From positions 1 to 22,277 of the IMG/VR virus record IMGVR_UViG_3300044970_001522: a stretch of DNA of 22,277 nucleotides, one strand, 5' to 3'. Of this stretch, positions 7,403 through 18,834 are shown piece by piece (position 1 is the first letter of the stretch; every line of letters begins with the position of its first letter). The stretch is from a virus. Its lineage: Duplodnaviria; Heunggongvirae; Uroviricota; Caudoviricetes. Below the pieces are notes generated by a model. It ran no database searches, had not been told where the DNA came from, and was given only the letters and a program-made list of their open reading frames with translations. The translations under genes were made by a program, and so were the position numbers.

Positions 7403-8043
7403 GTTATAACTTTCGTAAGCTTTGCACAAGGCTGCTCGCAGCTTGCAATTCTTACTTGTTCTTTACAGACGCTGAGAAAACCACTGCGTCCCAAATGGAG
7501 GAGCGACTGGAGGGGGTCCTGAAAGAGGCTTCCCTTGCACTGAGCACCCTTGTTTCAGAAGACCCCACTTACATTCCCTCAGGCCAGGGTCCGGAGTCCC
7601 GTTTGACGTCTGAGAATCTGGCCTGGGTGGACGAGAAGCTGAAGGAGCCGGGCTGGGCCAGGCAATTTCTGATCTCTGCCGGCATTCTAGATTCCGACGG
7701 TCACTGGAATCGTTCTTACTGGCCTGACGACGGCGAAGCCGGTAACACTTTAGGTTATTACATGGACCACCCTGAGTTCTACTGCGACCTAAAAGAGGAC
7801 GTTGTTGTGCAGAGTGTTTATTCTGGGGGACAAGAAACCGATCAGGATGTATTTGAAGAGCAAAGTAACAAACCCACACGCTCAGAAATTCTGAGTTGGA
7901 TAGAAGACCGATCAGCTTGGGGCTCAGACGACTACCTTGGCCGAGTGGCTCTTATAGTAGAAGAAGCCCTGGCATACTGGTCCCCTAAGTCTAGAAGGGG
8001 GGCGGTTTCCCCTCCTCGTTTTGCGGAGGAAAAGCCGCTATAA
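7399..8043 (+). CDS. Mosaic phage hypothetical protein, related to the upstream gene
   Basis: NFRKLCTRLL N-terminus; KPTRSEIL..IVEEALAYW module; C-terminal 14 aa encoded by promoter cassette. Confidence 0.8.
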   Translation: MSYNFRKLCTRLLAACNSYLFFTDAEKTTASQMEERLEGVLKEASLALSTLVSEDPTYIPSGQGPESRLTSENLAWVDEKLKEPGWARQFLISAGILDSDGHWNRSYWPDDGEAGNTLGYYMDHPEFYCDLKEDVVVQSVYSGGQETDQDVFEEQSNKPTRSEILSWIEDRSAWGSDDYLGRVALIVEEALAYWSPKSRRGAVSPPRFAEEKPL

Positions 8044-8894: not shown

Positions 8895-9077
8895 ACTGGC
8901 ACGGGTCACAAATCAGACGGCAAGCAGAAAGACACCCCCCTAAAAGTATGCGAACTTTCTAAAAGTTTTCAGAAAAGTGGGTGGCTTGAGCGTCCCACTC
9001 CTCTTTTCACGAGCGTTTCCCCCAAGCTTACGACACAAATTTTCCAGTACTTAGTCTCTCAGACCCACTCACAAACG

Positions 9078-9536
9078 ATGACCATTCAAACAAGACAAGC
9101 AGTTTTTGAAACCAACAGTTCAAGCACTCACTCACTCAGTATCTCTTCAAGTTCCACAGATCTCCTTGATACTTTGCCCTTGAACGAACAGGGGGAAGTG
9201 GTCCTCAATGGGGGCCAGTTTGGCTGGGAAGTGGAAGACTACTCCGATGCGAGCACTAAGGCGAGTTACGCGGCCATTTACGTTTCCGAGTGGTCCGGGG
9301 AAAAGAGTGCGGAGTTCAAGGAAGTTCTTGACACAGTGATCAAGCAGCAAACGGGTTGCTCAAACGTTGTATACGATTTATCTACAGACTGGTCTCACCC
9401 ACGGGAAACATCGTACATCGACCACCAGTCTGTTGAAGGGGGTCAGCTAGACTACTTGTTCGAAGACCCAGAACTTTTGCGACAGTTTATCTTCAACCCT
9501 CGCAGTGTCCTTCACACCGACAATGACAACTACTGA
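9078..9536 (+). CDS. Uncharacterised protein with N-terminal RxxVFETNSSSTHS motif
   Basis: MTIQTRQAVFETNSSSTHSLSI; overlaps start of radical SAM gene. Confidence 0.85.
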   Translation: MTIQTRQAVFETNSSSTHSLSISSSSTDLLDTLPLNEQGEVVLNGGQFGWEVEDYSDASTKASYAAIYVSEWSGEKSAEFKEVLDTVIKQQTGCSNVVYDLSTDWSHPRETSYIDHQSVEGGQLDYLFEDPELLRQFIFNPRSVLHTDNDNY

Positions 9537-10431
9537 GACAGTCCTTCACGCGTACAAAAACGGTAACTGCAACGTTACTTTGTGGTCTGGCGGCACCAAG
9601 ACTCGAGAGACTCTGGACGCAGACCACCCTTGGGCAGAACACCCGGAAAGCATTGACATTAAGGTTACAAACTTTTGCGACCTGGCGTGCCCTTACTGCC
9701 ACGAAAACTCCACTCTCGAAGGAAAGCACGGGGATCTGAACCGCTTACTTACAGTTTTGGAGCCTTTACCTCCAGGGGTGGAGCTGGCGATCGGGGGAGG
9801 AAACCCGCTATCTCACCCTGACCTTATACCGTTCCTTCGCAAAGTTAAGACCAAAGGGTTGGTGGCTAATTTAACCGTAAACGAGAGACACCTGGAACCC
9901 TACAAGTTTCTTTTGAGCTACTTGCGACGGAAAGATCTAATAAAAGGTATTGGTGTTTCCGTTACAGGTTCGAACCTACCTCTGGTAAAACAATTTCTGG
10001 AAAACAATCCGCACACCGTGTTTCATGTGATTGCTGGAGTGCACTCGCCCAGAGTTCTATCCGACCTAAGCTCCCTCCCAAACAGCAAAACTCTTGTGCT
10101 CGGGTACAAAACCTTTGGCCGTGGTATCCAGTTCTACGGTAACAAGACCAAGAAGCTTCTTTCCGAATGGTACCGGGCCATCCCAACTTTCCTTGGAAAG
10201 ACACACTTGTCGTTCGACAACCTTGCTGTGGAACAACTTAACATCAAGAGATTGCTCACGAACGAGGGTTGGTCAAAGTTTTACATGGGGGACGACGGTA
10301 GCTTCACAATGTACATCGACGCTGTCGAAGGAACGTACGCAAAAACAAGTAGGAGCAGCGAACGCACCTTGTTCGACAGCACTGACTTAATCTCTTACTT
10401 TCAAAGCTTGACTCCGAAGAGGTTCGGTTAA
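9523..10431 (+). CDS. Radical SAM protein
   Basis: CxxxCxxC motif CDLACPYC after ESIDIKVTN; GGGNP (GGE-like) motif; ATG 9523 overlaps upstream gene by 14 nt. Confidence 0.93.
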   Translation: MTTTETVLHAYKNGNCNVTLWSGGTKTRETLDADHPWAEHPESIDIKVTNFCDLACPYCHENSTLEGKHGDLNRLLTVLEPLPPGVELAIGGGNPLSHPDLIPFLRKVKTKGLVANLTVNERHLEPYKFLLSYLRRKDLIKGIGVSVTGSNLPLVKQFLENNPHTVFHVIAGVHSPRVLSDLSSLPNSKTLVLGYKTFGRGIQFYGNKTKKLLSEWYRAIPTFLGKTHLSFDNLAVEQLNIKRLLTNEGWSKFYMGDDGSFTMYIDAVEGTYAKTSRSSERTLFDSTDLISYFQSLTPKRFG

Positions 10432-10459
10432 CCCCTCTCCCTGGGGTGGTTTTCCTGGC
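10425..10459 (+). repeat. Decayed/partial promoter cassette
   Basis: CGGTTAACCC (10425) and GGGTGGTTTTCC (10444) at the canonical 19-nt offset, but no -35/-10 at the expected positions. Confidence 0.55.
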
Positions 10460-10583
10460 TACAAGGGGGGACCACAAACTACGGACAGACAGGTTGTCCC
10501 TCTTTACAAATCTCAAACGACGAAACATGACTACTGCAAAAATAGTTAAGCCGCACCAATCAATTGAAACCAACACAAAACAA

Positions 10584-10943
10584 ATGAAAAAAGCTATTTA
10601 CAAGTTCTTCTTCGACTGCGGAAGAATGGGCGAACTTGAGGGGATTTTCGTTGCCAAACCTAAGGATGTCAAAAGGTTGGTTGATAGTGGTGAAGAACTT
10701 TACTTCGGCGAAGTTCTCGGCAAGCACAGCGAAATTTCCGGAGTTGTCTCCGTGGAAAATTTCATCTTCGTAACAGATGAGGAAGAAATTGTAAACTTCT
10801 TCGAGATTCACGAGATGGCAACGGGCATTAACCCGCTTAGTTACTTCGAAGAAGAGGGTGCTGAGGATGACATTAATGAAGAGGACAGTGGTGGCGACGT
10901 TCTAAGCGAGGACCATTCTTTTGAGGGCTTCCCGTGGAACTAA
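10584..10943 (+). CDS. Phage hypothetical protein (YKFFFDCGRMGELEG..YFGEVLGKHSEI family) with acidic tail
   Basis: Recognisable recurring phage motif; alternative start ATG 10527. Confidence 0.8.
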   Translation: MKKAIYKFFFDCGRMGELEGIFVAKPKDVKRLVDSGEELYFGEVLGKHSEISGVVSVENFIFVTDEEEIVNFFEIHEMATGINPLSYFEEEGAEDDINEEDSGGDVLSEDHSFEGFPWN

Positions 10944-11523: not shown

Positions 11524-11646
11524 GTCCGACGAGCTCTACGTCTTAACCTTACCTGGTTGGTGTGAGTCCACTGGAGTTCAGTCCGAGATCTCTTTCGCAC
11601 AGCTGTTGGGGGTGCCTCTTTCTCTACACATTCCTGCGCCCCTAGG

Positions 11647-11709
11647 CGGTTAGCCGGTTGCTCTAGGGCGGTTTCCCCGCTTGTTTTCTCGAAGAGAAAG
11701 CGGTATAAT
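11647..11709 (+). promoter_or_regulatory. Promoter cassette copy 5 (full length, with spacer hairpin), upstream of tsf
   Basis: CGGTTAGCCG (11647), GGGCGGTTTCCCCGC (11666), TTGTTT (11681), 17 nt, TATAAT (11704). Confidence 0.9.
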
Positions 11710-11746
11710 ACATATAACCTGAAAAGTCCCCTCAAACCTGAGTAAC

Positions 11747-12355
11747 ATGGCTTCCATCCCCCCTACAATCCTACAAGTTAAGTCCCTGCGAGAAAAGACC
11801 GGTGCTGGCCTGATTCTCTGCAAAGAAGCACTCATTTTTTCTAGCAGTGACGAAGCCGGTGCGATCACGTGGTTGCGGCAGAGAGGAGTGGCCTTAGCCG
11901 ATGGTAAGGTTGGTCGGAGCGCACGAGAAGGTACTGTGGGCAGCTACATTCACACTGGCGGTAAGGTTGGAGTCCTTATCGAGGTCAACTGCGAAACAGA
12001 TTTTGTGGCCAAATCGGAGCCTTTTCAGGATCTCGTACGCAATTTGGCCATGCAAGTTGCAGCGTGCCCCTCTGTGTGCTACGTGTCGATCTTTGACATT
12101 CCTGAGGAGACTCTCCTTGAGGAGACACGGATTGAGTCGGGAAAAGCAGACCTTTCGAGTAAACCTGAGGCAATTCGAAACAAGATCGTTGAGGGTCGTG
12201 TGGCAAAGCGATTCAGAGAGCTGTCTCTCATGGACCAGCCCTACATCAAAGACAACTCAATGAGTATCGAAACATACGTGGAGAACTTCGCTGCGGTAGT
12301 TGGCGAAAACATCGTTGTGAAGCGATTCGTACGTTTTGTCCTCGGCAGCTCCTGA
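11747..12355 (+). CDS. tsf: Translation elongation factor Ts, short (cyanobacterial-type)
   Basis: VKSLREKTGAG..CKEAL, WLRQRG, EG.VGSYIHTGG, EVNCETDFVA, AMQVAACP, DQPYIKD, GENIVVKRFVRFVLG. Confidence 0.97.
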   Translation: MASIPPTILQVKSLREKTGAGLILCKEALIFSSSDEAGAITWLRQRGVALADGKVGRSAREGTVGSYIHTGGKVGVLIEVNCETDFVAKSEPFQDLVRNLAMQVAACPSVCYVSIFDIPEETLLEETRIESGKADLSSKPEAIRNKIVEGRVAKRFRELSLMDQPYIKDNSMSIETYVENFAAVVGENIVVKRFVRFVLGSS

Positions 12356-12369
12356 GTCTCCTTAAACAA

Positions 12370-12636
12370 ATGTGGTGCCCAGCCCTTTTACCATTGTGGA
12401 TGCGAATGCCCCTGCCTCCGAGGGGCAAAAGACTCGAAGAGCTTCGAGCTGAGACCCTCGCCCTGAAGGAGGAAGAACTTTCCCTGAAGGAGGAAGAACT
12501 TTCTTTTCGAGAAGACACACTGAGGCTAAGAACCGAAGAGCTGAGGCTAAGAGCCCAGACCCTGGCCCTTAAAGAGCTGGGGCTTAAAATTGAGTTAAAC
12601 GAGTTAAACAAGTTGAAACAACCCCGAAAACAATGA
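12370..12636 (+). CDS. Heptad-repeat coiled-coil protein, 88 aa
   Basis: LALKEEE-LSLKEEE-LSFREDT-LRLRTEE-LRLRAQT-LALKELG heptads. Confidence 0.7.
   Translation: MWCPALLPLWMRMPLPPRGKRLEELRAETLALKEEELSLKEEELSFREDTLRLRTEELRLRAQTLALKELGLKIELNELNKLKQPRKQ
12461..12502 (+). repeat. 21-nt exact tandem duplication
   Basis: CCCTGAAGGAGGAAGAACTTT x2 (12461-12481, 12482-12502); a second 21-nt-period pair CTGAGGCTAAGA at 12520 and 12541. Confidence 0.95.
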
Positions 12637-14885: not shown

Positions 14886-14914
14886 CTCCTGCAATTTCTT
14901 GGTTAGACCAGAGG

Positions 14915-14977
14915 CGGTTAACCGCTTGCTCCGGGGCGGTTTCCCGGCTTGTTTCTGCGTAGCATAAACGGTATAGT
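14915..14977 (+). promoter_or_regulatory. Promoter cassette copy 7 (full length, with spacer hairpin)
   Basis: Perfect palindrome GCGGTTAACCGC (14914-14925), GGGCGGTTTCCCGGC (14934), TTGTTT (14949), 17 nt, TATAGT (14972); near-identical to copy 2. Confidence 0.9.
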
Positions 14978-15030
14978 ATTTACATGAGCAGCGGTGCTCA
15001 GACACTTAGCCCCCTAACTCAGGAGACCCA

Positions 15031-17952: not shown

Positions 17953-18834
17953 ATGACAACTTTCGACAAATGCCTCGGAGCCTTTATTGGCCTTGCGATC
18001 GGTGACGCGATGGGTGCGCCAGTGGAGTTCTCTCCACCGGGGACATTCGAGCCAGTCACAGGCTACCGAGAAGGAGGACCCTTTAATCTGCCGTCAGGCT
18101 ACTGGACGGACGACACATCGCAGGCTGTTTGCCTTGCCGAGTCTTTTATTCATTGCAATGGGCAGATCAATCTTGGAGACCAAATGCGTCGGTACTCCAA
18201 CTGGTACGAGTACGGAAGGAACAGCTCAACAGGTGTCTGTTTTGACATCGGCAATGGAACACTCCGTGCAATTGAGACTTTTCTCGTTGAGGGGTCTTTG
18301 GGTCTCTATCCGGAGAATTCGAAAGGAAACGGGTCTTTGATGCGTTTGTCCCCCGTTTCTATTGTTTACCACAAATCGAGTGAGGGGGACGCTGTAGCAG
18401 CTTGTGACGCGTCATCCTCAACAACCCATGGCCACTTGGCATCCGACCTATGCAAAGATCTCGGTCGTTTGCTGCACCGATACTTGAATGGTACGGGGGA
18501 GAAACCTGAAGTCTCGCCGGAGGGAATTGAAAATTCCGGGTACGCACCGAAGTCCTTAAACGCCGCACTCTACCATTTCGGGTCAACTTCGTCCTTTGAA
18601 GAGGCCATCCTGCAGGCTGTGAACTACGGGGACGACTCAGACACGGTTGCTGCGATCACGGGACAGCTAGCAGGTGCTTACTACGGTTACAAGGCTATTC
18701 CTAGGCGATGGATTTCAGGGTTGCACGACAGTGAAAGACTTTTGCTCATAGCAAGCACTTTGTACGACCTTTCGTTTGGGGCGGTTTCCCCCCCTTGTTT
18801 CTACTCTGAAATAACGTATAATACCCTTACTTAA
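17953..18834 (+). CDS. ADP-ribosylglycohydrolase (DraG/ARH family)
   Basis: GLAIGDAMGAPVEF, WTDDT, GNGSLMRLSP, GDDSDTVAAITGQLAGAYYG. Confidence 0.95.
   Translation: MTTFDKCLGAFIGLAIGDAMGAPVEFSPPGTFEPVTGYREGGPFNLPSGYWTDDTSQAVCLAESFIHCNGQINLGDQMRRYSNWYEYGRNSSTGVCFDIGNGTLRAIETFLVEGSLGLYPENSKGNGSLMRLSPVSIVYHKSSEGDAVAACDASSSTTHGHLASDLCKDLGRLLHRYLNGTGEKPEVSPEGIENSGYAPKSLNAALYHFGSTSSFEEAILQAVNYGDDSDTVAAITGQLAGAYYGYKAIPRRWISGLHDSERLLLIASTLYDLSFGAVSPPCFYSEITYNTLT
18779..18822 (+). promoter_or_regulatory. Promoter cassette copy 8 (inside 3' end of ARH gene)
   Basis: GGGCGGTTTCCCCCCC, TTGTTT (18795), 16 nt, TATAAT (18817). Confidence 0.8.

Follow-up and report, generated by a model that had tools for sequence, protein, structure and literature searches.

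To our knowledge, few radical S-adenosylmethionine (SAM) enzymes act on proteins. Those that do have each revealed new chemistry: glycyl radicals, formylglycine, and thioether and carbon-carbon cross-links. The present analysis concerns a pair of genes in a 22,277-nucleotide (nt) stretch of DNA from a virus of the class Caudoviricetes (IMG/VR record IMGVR_UViG_3300044970_001522, positions 1 to 22,277; hereafter, the window). One gene encodes a single-cluster radical SAM enzyme, and the other encodes a small acidic partner protein that begins with a tag of approx. 22 residues. The enzyme family has thousands of members, is tied to this one invariant peptide tag on many protein bodies, and lacks the auxiliary clusters of related maturases. 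If the tag is modified, the modification would be new to proteins, and a large class of uncharacterised phage proteins would mature by a common step; if the tag completes the enzyme, the pair would be an uncommon kind of split radical SAM enzyme whose subunits can be exchanged. In either case, two large families would gain a function.

The closest described systems by structure are SkfB (PDB 6efn) and SuiB (5v1t, with SuiA), radical SAM maturases of ribosomally synthesized and post-translationally modified peptides (RiPPs), which align with nearly the whole enzyme, N-terminal sheet included. In both, an N-terminal element binds the partner peptide and presents a segment of it to the barrel, as is predicted here. 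However, the sequences are just 11-14% identical. Twitch or SPASM auxiliary clusters are present in SkfB and SuiB, whereas the phage enzyme family has no conserved Cys past the three cluster ligands; the clients of SkfB and SuiB are short precursors with a leader and a core, whereas the phage enzyme has as its putative client a folded protein that bears a tag at the N-terminus. Moreover, their lead over viperin, PqqE, BlsE, and EpeE (Z 15.5-16) amounts to only 1.5-3.5 Z units. A second parallel is the anaerobic sulfatase-maturing enzyme anSME/AtsB (Z 13.4-14.0), a radical SAM enzyme that serves many different folded clients and targets a Ser or Cys within a short motif that is invariant among them and lies close to their N-termini. 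anSME has two auxiliary 4Fe-4S clusters, the motif C/S-x-P/A-x-R, and sulfatases as clients; in contrast, the enzyme described here has no auxiliary cluster, the motif is F-E-T-N-S-S-S-x-H-S, and the candidate clients are small acidic proteins. PflA and NrdG, activases of glycyl-radical enzymes, are likewise small single-cluster radical SAM enzymes that act on a folded partner encoded adjacently, and NrdG2 is among the best NCBIfam matches. Their target is a Gly in a C-terminal RVxG motif, whereas the tag is N-terminal and contains no invariant Gly. Finally, viperin and pVip share with the phage enzyme the single cluster, a similar size, and the core (Z 15.5-15.9; root-mean-square deviation (rmsd) 3.1-3.4), but viperins act alone on the nucleotides CTP or UTP, whereas 96% of the loci with the phage enzyme also encode a tagged protein.

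The same module (PHROGs 16999 and 28997) is found in the cultured phages Ma-LMM01 (Microcystis; gp128/gp130), Arash (Salmonella; gp146c), RM378 (Rhodothermus; p108/p106), and phiYS40 (Thermus; 161/162), where the relatives are annotated as 'Fe-S oxidoreductase', 'methyltransferase' or 'hypothetical'. Ma-LMM01 gp130 starts with MLSIQVRQGVFETNSSSTHS, and one unrelated gene lies between gp128 and gp130. RM378 p106 and phiYS40 162 bear tag variants, that of phiYS40 being degenerate (LTSMTNSSSASM). In particular, gene 162 of this Thermus phage (locus L166, 2018-2971) encodes a 317-amino-acid protein with the degenerate tag (MRRLKEVRLTSMTNSSSASM) and overlaps the start of the radical SAM gene 161; F, E, and H are the variable positions, and T-N-S-S-S is constant. 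In Ma-LMM01, an early set (gp054-gp063), a gp037-041 cluster, and 162 middle genes have been distinguished (PMC5780444); gp128-gp130 belong neither to the early set nor to the gp037-041 cluster and are, by exclusion, probably middle genes. RM378 p109, the gene directly upstream of the RM378 enzyme, was considered as a partner and rejected, the tagged gene being p106. RB43 ORF169c, a weak radical SAM match, proved to be a different, Cys-rich radical SAM protein with no tag nearby.

The gene pair and the conserved tag

An earlier note on this DNA, made from the sequence alone, had described an acidic protein and a radical SAM enzyme encoded by overlapping genes. Both open reading frames (ORFs) were found at the positions given there, with the low isoelectric point (pI) of the first and the CDLACPYC motif of the second. 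The pair comprises the following features:

9078..9536, + strand: gene of the tagged partner protein (ORF; 152 amino acids, pI 4.23, body type A)
9078..9143, + strand: N-terminal tag, partner residues 1-22 (MTIQTRQAVFETNSSSTHSLSI), the element common to all partner types
9523..9536, + strand: 14-nt overlap between the partner stop and the radical SAM start, suggesting translational coupling
9523..10431, + strand: gene of the radical SAM enzyme (302 amino acids, single-cluster type)
9541..9612, + strand: N-terminal three-stranded sheet of the enzyme, residues 7-30 (Y-x-N-G-N...D-G-T-K-x-R-E), predicted docking site for tag residues 3-6
9676..9699, + strand: CX3CX2C cluster motif (C52, C56, C59), read from the sequence

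The partner protein starts with MTIQTRQAVFETNSSSTHSLSISSSS, contains 25 D+E vs 8 K+R and one Cys, and bears the marks of body type A (FGW, K61..Y64, YIDHQS, and TDNDN at the end). Its tag residues R6, F10, E11, T12, N13, S14, S15, S16, and H18 conform to the pattern R-x-x-[VI]-F-E-T-N-S-S-S-x-H, and the single-cluster enzyme on the same strand belongs to the clade found with this tag elsewhere. An alternative GTG start at 9505 would give an enzyme of 308 amino acids; ATG 9523 was taken as the start because homologues begin like the ATG form. The 189.9 kb of this phage's record contain one tagged ORF and one enzyme, with no second tagged gene. The phage represents the minimal 1:1 form of the module, with one candidate client of the commonest body type and one enzyme.

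The conserved element of the partner is the tag, not the 152-residue body, a point missed by the earlier note. The tag consensus spans approx. 22 residues, M-K-x-x-I-R-x-G-V-F-E-T-N-S-S-S-T-H-S. Across 263 distinct tagged ORFs, the logo reads M-K-x-x-[IV]-R(98%)-x-G-V-F(99)-E(98)-T(98)-N-S-S(99)-S(97)-T-H(97)-S-[IL]-x-[IV], in which N and the first S were preset by the search pattern; of the 277 hits of a hidden Markov model search free of that pattern, only two were variants. In 237 of the 263 ORFs, the start Met and the F are 8-9 residues apart. Judged by sequence statistics, the tag pattern is far beyond chance. At the level of BLAST, the bodies of 266 tagged proteins fall into 35 clusters:

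Body type A/B: 161 members, including the window protein; motifs FGW, K..Y, Y-I/V-D-H, and [TG]-x-N-D-N
Body type C: 53 members; small, very acidic, with ...TTPSGDxIVAFGKYGYDG
Body type of approx. 313 amino acids: 12 members, in Clostridia genome bins
Remaining body clusters: five of two to four members and 27 singletons

All 35 body representatives lack a Pfam domain, and the sole residues that never vary among them are R, T, N, S, S, and H. The type A/B body stands beside 63 of 72 enzymes, and type C is the only partner of five. Within type A/B, the invariant polar positions are K61, Y64, D115, H116, and D150, and G49 is the sole nearly invariant Gly.

The earlier note had stated that TNSSS motifs occur next to radical SAM genes in large phages and had proposed gene-neighbourhood analysis as a check; locus surveys verified the statement and showed that the genes co-occur in both directions. 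When the tag was the starting point, an enzyme gene was found within 6-8 kb, always on the same strand, in 128 of 151 loci (70/79 viral and 58/72 genome-bin loci). The median gap from tagged gene to enzyme gene is -11.5 nt in the 70 viral loci and 11.5 nt in the genome-bin loci, and it is ≤50 nt in 108 loci. Among the loci without a same-strand enzyme, a divergently oriented radical SAM gene lies immediately upstream in two, and in another two the enzyme is encoded at a different place on the contig; a search of three further unmatched loci, in records estimated to be 9-38% complete, found no enzyme. When the enzyme was the starting point, a tagged ORF was found nearby in 69 of 72 distinct viral loci (96%), and one of the three exceptions has its enzyme at the extreme end of a contig. 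In many loci, one radical SAM gene lies beside 2-10 tagged genes. The two parts are also fused, in the order tag-body-radical SAM in Arash gp146c and in the order radical SAM-tag-body in locus L084 (4115-5476), which has in addition an adjoining free tagged gene. The pair has no conserved third companion: RlaP, the most common family among the neighbours, is present in 15 of 162 loci. The module is very large, uncharacterised, and mostly phage-borne, and its only obligate parts are the enzyme and the N-terminal tag.

Three loci (L147, 7271-9826; L153, 8001-10795; L162, 8001-9820) encode tagged proteins of approx. 240-320 amino acids with a radical SAM enzyme in Clostridia/Christensenellaceae genome bins. 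They are surrounded by housekeeping genes (fusA-tuf, asnA, a ZIP transporter) and look like bacterial chromosomal sites with no phage genes nearby; therefore, the module is not strictly phage-borne.

The two proteins are members of PHROG 16999 and PHROG 28997, families whose functions are both untested: the enzyme matches phrog_16999 ('Fe-S oxidoreductase') at 4.6e-67 over profile positions 8-287 of 288, and the partner matches phrog_28997 at 1.1e-12 over positions 3-142 of 165. A search with the enzyme returned 6814 proteins at E ≤1e-5, the best 120 of which are approx. 50-95% identical; identity is 49.7% to Ma-LMM01 gp128, 36-42% to Lak megaphages, 29% to RM378 p108, and 27% to Salmonella phage Arash gp146c. 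The partner has 241 near relatives, and a profile of 56 relatives retrieved 5277 cluster representatives at E ≤1e-3 among 1.84 billion proteins. No family match to the partner was found in Pfam, NCBIfam or PADLOC, and no PDB relative was found by sequence profile. Its fold gave a best E of 2.2 with Foldseek against the PDB and a best Z of 2.6 in a wide VIA-align search, although these blank searches do not prove the fold new because the 14 N-terminal residues are poorly modelled. An ESM Atlas feature search with the partner yielded unnamed viral clusters only. A tblastn search of phage records with the partner gave no match, yet Ma-LMM01 gp130 is a clear relative; this result was discarded, and a low-complexity filter may explain it. 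In the searchable literature on the motif, on phage radical SAM proteins, and on anti-defence together with radical SAM, no paper on the tag motif or the module was found. The tag, the client superfamily, and the single-cluster enzyme are undescribed, whereas the principle of a radical SAM enzyme acting on a short partner motif is known.

The enzyme and its predicted complex with the tag

The enzyme is a member of the radical SAM superfamily, as its three-Cys motif, its Pfam score, and its barrel core all indicate. The score for PF04055 is a marginal pass (32.3 bits vs a gathering threshold of 29.5) that is backed by the fold. In the AlphaFold2 model (predicted local distance difference test (pLDDT) 88), an N-terminal three-stranded sheet (residues 7-30; strands 7-13, 16-21, and 26-30) precedes a barrel with alternating β-α units. 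GGGNP at residues 91-95 is invariant, as are the polar or basic barrel residues H123, H168, K189, K196, R277, and R281. The columns of C52, C56, and C59 are 100% Cys in 106 family cores; beyond these ligands no column in the 106 cores exceeds 18% Cys, and 21 cores have no further Cys at all. The window enzyme has only four Cys in total (16, 52, 56, and 59, with CDLACPYC at residues 52-59), so that no SPASM or twitch cluster is possible, in agreement with the earlier note, which had seen no obvious C-terminal SPASM cluster. In 26 family members, an expanded cluster motif replaces CX3CX2C, e.g., CAFGLNPKTGKSFCSFC (CX12CX2C); the enzymes of loci L005, L006, L016, L017, L021, L025, L028, and L036 are among them.

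By structure alignment, the model resembles some 50 solved radical SAM enzymes at Z 10-19. SkfB leads (Z 19.1, rmsd 4.0, 268 aligned residues, model residues 7-302), followed by SuiB with its precursor (Z 17.6, rmsd 4.5, 276 aligned, model residues 3-296), a viperin-like structure (Z 15.9, rmsd 3.1), PqqE, BlsE, EpeE, and ChlB (Z approx. 15.5-15.8), MoaA (14.2), and anSME (14.0). Most of the structures below the first two cover the model only from approx. residue 36-40 on, and the lead of SkfB and SuiB is probably due to their additional alignment with the N-terminal sheet. Given the modest Z margin, their likeness shows resemblance, not membership. The best Foldseek matches are SuiB (E 3.4e-7, TM-score 0.61 by query), CteB, AbmM, BlsE, DesII, SkfB, and anSME.

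Assignment to a characterised class failed for each class tried. For SPASM/twitch maturases, the NCBIfam models PqqE, WgkB, StsB, ScmE, and others scored 12-27 bits against cut-offs of 350-650. The viperin model NF038283 scored 19.5 vs 180 bits, and the PADLOC pVip match covers only residues 44-146 (1.6e-7). MoaA models scored 16-20 bits vs 231-325, and QueE scored 12.9 vs 300. For glycyl-radical activases, NrdG2 scored 26.7 vs 131 bits; moreover, the partner has no RVxG motif near its C-terminus, and its G49 lies outside the predicted interface. The possibility raised in the earlier note that the enzyme might group with a stand-alone family was answered in the negative: it falls outside viperin, QueE, and MoaA (NCBIfam 13-27 bits vs cut-offs of 131-450).

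The complex of the two proteins was predicted from custom alignments, with SAM and a 4Fe-4S cluster included, and alongside three controls. It scored 0.92, whereas the best control scored 0.00; the score is the model's own confidence. In a calibration set, 58 of 80 solved complexes and two of 110 mismatched pairs attained this mark; given the custom alignments and added ligands, these counts are only approximate for the present case. Recall of a solved structure is an unlikely reason for the pass, since no similar complex has been solved and the partner has no PDB relative. Between runs, at least 75% of contacts agree, and the partner pLDDT is at least 79. In the monomer model of the partner, the body is confident and the invariant residues 1-14 have pLDDT <50, as expected for a segment that becomes ordered only on the enzyme.

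In the predicted complex, tag residues 1-30 lie across the enzyme barrel, and residues 3-6 pair with the N-terminal sheet, the placement of the motif in the barrel that had been suggested as a check in the earlier note. The confident interface comprises, on the partner side, residues 1-30 plus 90-94, 140, and 142, and, on the enzyme side, the N-terminal hairpin 23-33 and the C-terminal ends of the barrel strands (87-95, with the SAM-binding GGGN, 114-118, 141-144, 164-168, 189-193, 228-233, and 251-256). The lowest-error pairs are partner residues 3-6 with enzyme residues 25-28, within a wider low-error set of enzyme residues 24-29 with partner residues 3-10. Partner F10 is predicted to contact G24, E87, N116, and G142 of the enzyme.

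Possible roles of the tag

The favoured reading is that the pair consists of a maturase and its client and that the enzyme modifies the tag of the client proteins; on sequence patterns and the modelled complex, we give it an even chance of being correct. According to this proposal, the enzyme would recognize the N-terminal tag of the partner. Tag residues 3-8 (I-R-x-x-V) would add as a β-strand to the N-terminal sheet of the enzyme, as leader peptides do on RiPP maturases, and F10 to S19 (F-E-T-N-S-S-S-T-H-S) would lie across the open end of the barrel, beside SAM and the 4Fe-4S cluster. The 5'-deoxyadenosyl radical would take a hydrogen from one invariant T-N-S-S residue, and the resulting modification would be needed by the tagged protein in order to act. 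In other phages, one enzyme would serve up to ten differently built, mostly small acidic tagged proteins. The maturase reading is favoured because of the many-to-one relation, the diversity of the bodies, the substrate-like position of the tag, and the leader-like strand addition. Because there is no auxiliary cluster, the reaction should be redox-neutral or reductive, or should return an electron to the SAM cluster (DesII or BtrN-type); such a change is more likely than a copy of the anSME reaction. Ser oxidation, the example offered in the earlier note, is still compatible with these options, but a simple anSME copy is unlikely, as the auxiliary clusters of anSME are missing here.

In its widest form, the proposal is that of a phage-wide, undescribed maturation system, in which a single-cluster radical SAM enzyme would put a radical-derived modification into the T-N-S-S-S tag of thousands of unrelated small acidic proteins; this would be new chemistry and a shared 'arming' step for a large and rapidly diversifying group of phage effectors, possibly in phage-host conflict. 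We consider this plausible but a little short of an even chance. The bodies are small, acidic, varied, and often encoded in tandem arrays, traits that resemble those of anti-defence proteins, and the neighbours are mildly enriched in RNA-repair genes; both are hints only.

Several observations weigh against tag modification. The support for it is genomic or predicted throughout, and the auxiliary clusters of every solved maturase that the enzyme resembles are missing. Viperin-like enzymes fit the core nearly as well (Z 15.9, rmsd 3.1), and the invariant polar and basic barrel residues could serve to hold a second substrate of small size. A run of ten near-invariant residues exceeds the usual needs of recognition and would suit an active-site element too. 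In addition, the predominant type A/B body (beside 63/72 enzymes) evolves as slowly as the enzyme (78% vs 77-81% identity to the nearest other lineage), and fusions in both orders are no easier to reconcile with an enzyme and its substrate than with a two-domain enzyme.

The main rival reading is a two-part enzyme, in which the tag docks and completes the active site, the body binds a third molecule as substrate (a nucleotide, an RNA such as a transfer RNA, or a host protein), and extra tagged proteins are alternative specificity subunits. This explanation, which we hold to be rather unlikely but deserving of serious attention, draws on the two fusion orders and a 461-amino-acid fused form in BFVD, on the extreme invariance of the tag, on the slow evolution of the type A/B body with its own invariant polar motifs (K61, Y64, D115, H116, and D150), and on the many invariant basic residues that line the barrel. 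The 14-nt overlap suggests 1:1 synthesis, and the commonest neighbours are RNA-repair genes (RlaP, Thg1, CCA-adding enzyme, metallophosphoesterase), though each in only 3-9% of loci. However, the predicted complex has the tag itself filling the barrel opening, the place of the substrate; for five enzymes, the small type C body is the sole partner and type A/B is lacking; and nothing beyond the tag is common to the bodies of the 35 clusters. Furthermore, the strongly acidic bodies (pI 4.2 here) are a poor fit for RNA or nucleotide binding, and D115-H116 and D148-D150 lie outside the confident contacts, which is no proof against touching. The earlier note had offered substrate and accessory subunit as alternatives for the partner; three computational tests support the link between enzyme and partner, and both options stand.

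The remaining explanations loosen that link. A tag that directs sorting, packaging, or self-processing (e.g., targeting to the capsid or cleavage at the N-terminus), connected with the enzyme only indirectly, would account for its constant distance from the N-terminus in 237/263 ORFs and for its presence on unrelated bodies, as with T4 capsid-targeting sequences. We judge this very improbable, as the tag is internal in the radical SAM-first fusion of L084, is predicted to bind the enzyme barrel, and occurs at the apparent bacterial chromosomal sites without phage genes (L147, L153, L162), and as no protease or capsid gene co-occurs with the pair. Slightly less probable still, the enzyme would work by itself on a small molecule, in the manner of viperin, MoaA, or QueE, and produce, e.g., a modified nucleotide, with the partner a mere conserved neighbour. 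The single cluster of the enzyme and its length of approx. 300 amino acids would suit such a role, as would the core matches to viperin-like structures (Z 15.5-15.9, with the lowest rmsd, 3.1-3.4) and to PADLOC pVip models. Against this, the curated thresholds are far off (viperin 19.5 vs 180 bits, MoaA 20 vs 231, QueE 12.9 vs 300), and the pVip match is limited to the half that binds the cluster, which is generic. An unrelated neighbour would not be expected to adjoin, overlap, or be fused with the enzyme gene or to accompany it in 96% of loci in the reverse survey, and the complex prediction passed its controls.

Surroundings and possible expression of the pair

Outside the coding region of the pair, two features were marked in the window:

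8000..8035, + strand: closest upstream copy of a repeated promoter-like cassette (repeat families D2 and D3)
10431..10447, + strand: weak, uncertain terminator-like hairpin immediately past the radical SAM stop (hairpin scan)

The cassette (GGGCGGTTTCCC..GCTTGTTT..hairpin..GCGGTATA[AG]T) splits the window into transcription units, with copies at 421-487, 2228-2294, 8000-8035, 11644-11710, 14912-14978, and 18778-18800. Given the full cassettes at 8000-8035 and 11644-11710, the pair probably lies within one transcription unit between them, and the first of these is the probable start of that unit. As to the bounds of the pair described in the earlier note, the long upstream gap is real (8895-9077, 183 nt), and a promoter scan found no sigma-70-like site in it, but the downstream 'cassette remnant' is weak: the stretch at 10823-10858 is only a 64% match and lies approx. 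390 nt past the radical SAM stop, inside the next ORF. Two terminator-like hairpins were found in the scan vs 3.7 expected in shuffles, and the site at 10431-10447 alone carries no weight.

In four RNA libraries from lake water, contigs covering both genes are present, and the overlap is spanned by individual contigs; this is weak evidence that the pair is expressed, as DNA carry-over is possible in those libraries. In the radical SAM frame, a manual count showed that these contigs differ from the window mostly at third codon positions, which fits purifying selection.

At the loci surveyed, the most frequent neighbours of the module are RNA-repair genes in 3-9% of loci each, namely the RlaP nucleotidyltransferase, the Thg1-like guanylyltransferase, and the CCA-adding enzyme; examples are L107 (6455-7483), L049 (9246-10085), L059 (2074-3426), and L102 (5005-6372). 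A metallophosphoesterase is also among the most frequent neighbours, and an RNA ligase is among the mildly enriched RNA-repair genes. A class V aminotransferase (cysteine desulfurase-like, PF00266 at 1e-80) lies near the module in eight loci, e.g., L074 (7821-8957), and may supply sulfur for the iron-sulfur cluster of the enzyme. Twenty neighbours were scanned, ten of them of at least 655 amino acids; most look like phage replication or housekeeping proteins, and one has weak STAND-NTPase matches in Pfam beside a strong AAA/Vps4 match.

An ESM Atlas shape search revealed a viral cluster of 261-amino-acid proteins with a Tad2-like PF11195 domain (Thoeris anti-defence) that shares the fold of the partner (TM-score 0.63 over 134 residues). 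This cluster may represent a tagged body fused to an anti-defence domain, although this could not be confirmed; PF11195 was absent from the 57 long forms and the 35 body types scanned.

The ORF that follows the radical SAM gene (10446-10943, + strand) matches phrog_5848 (unknown function; 3.1e-21) over residues 49-141 only, and because of this limited match its true start is probably an internal Met near 10584. It is kept in close relatives only and lies outside the module. Farther downstream, directly after the full promoter cassette, 11747-12355 (+ strand) encodes a 202-amino-acid EF-Ts homologue (TIGR00116, 1.7e-43; cut-off 104 bits). Finally, 12461-12502 is a perfect tandem duplication of a 21-nt unit (CCCTGAAGGAGGAAGAACTTT) inside ORFs that overlap on both strands.

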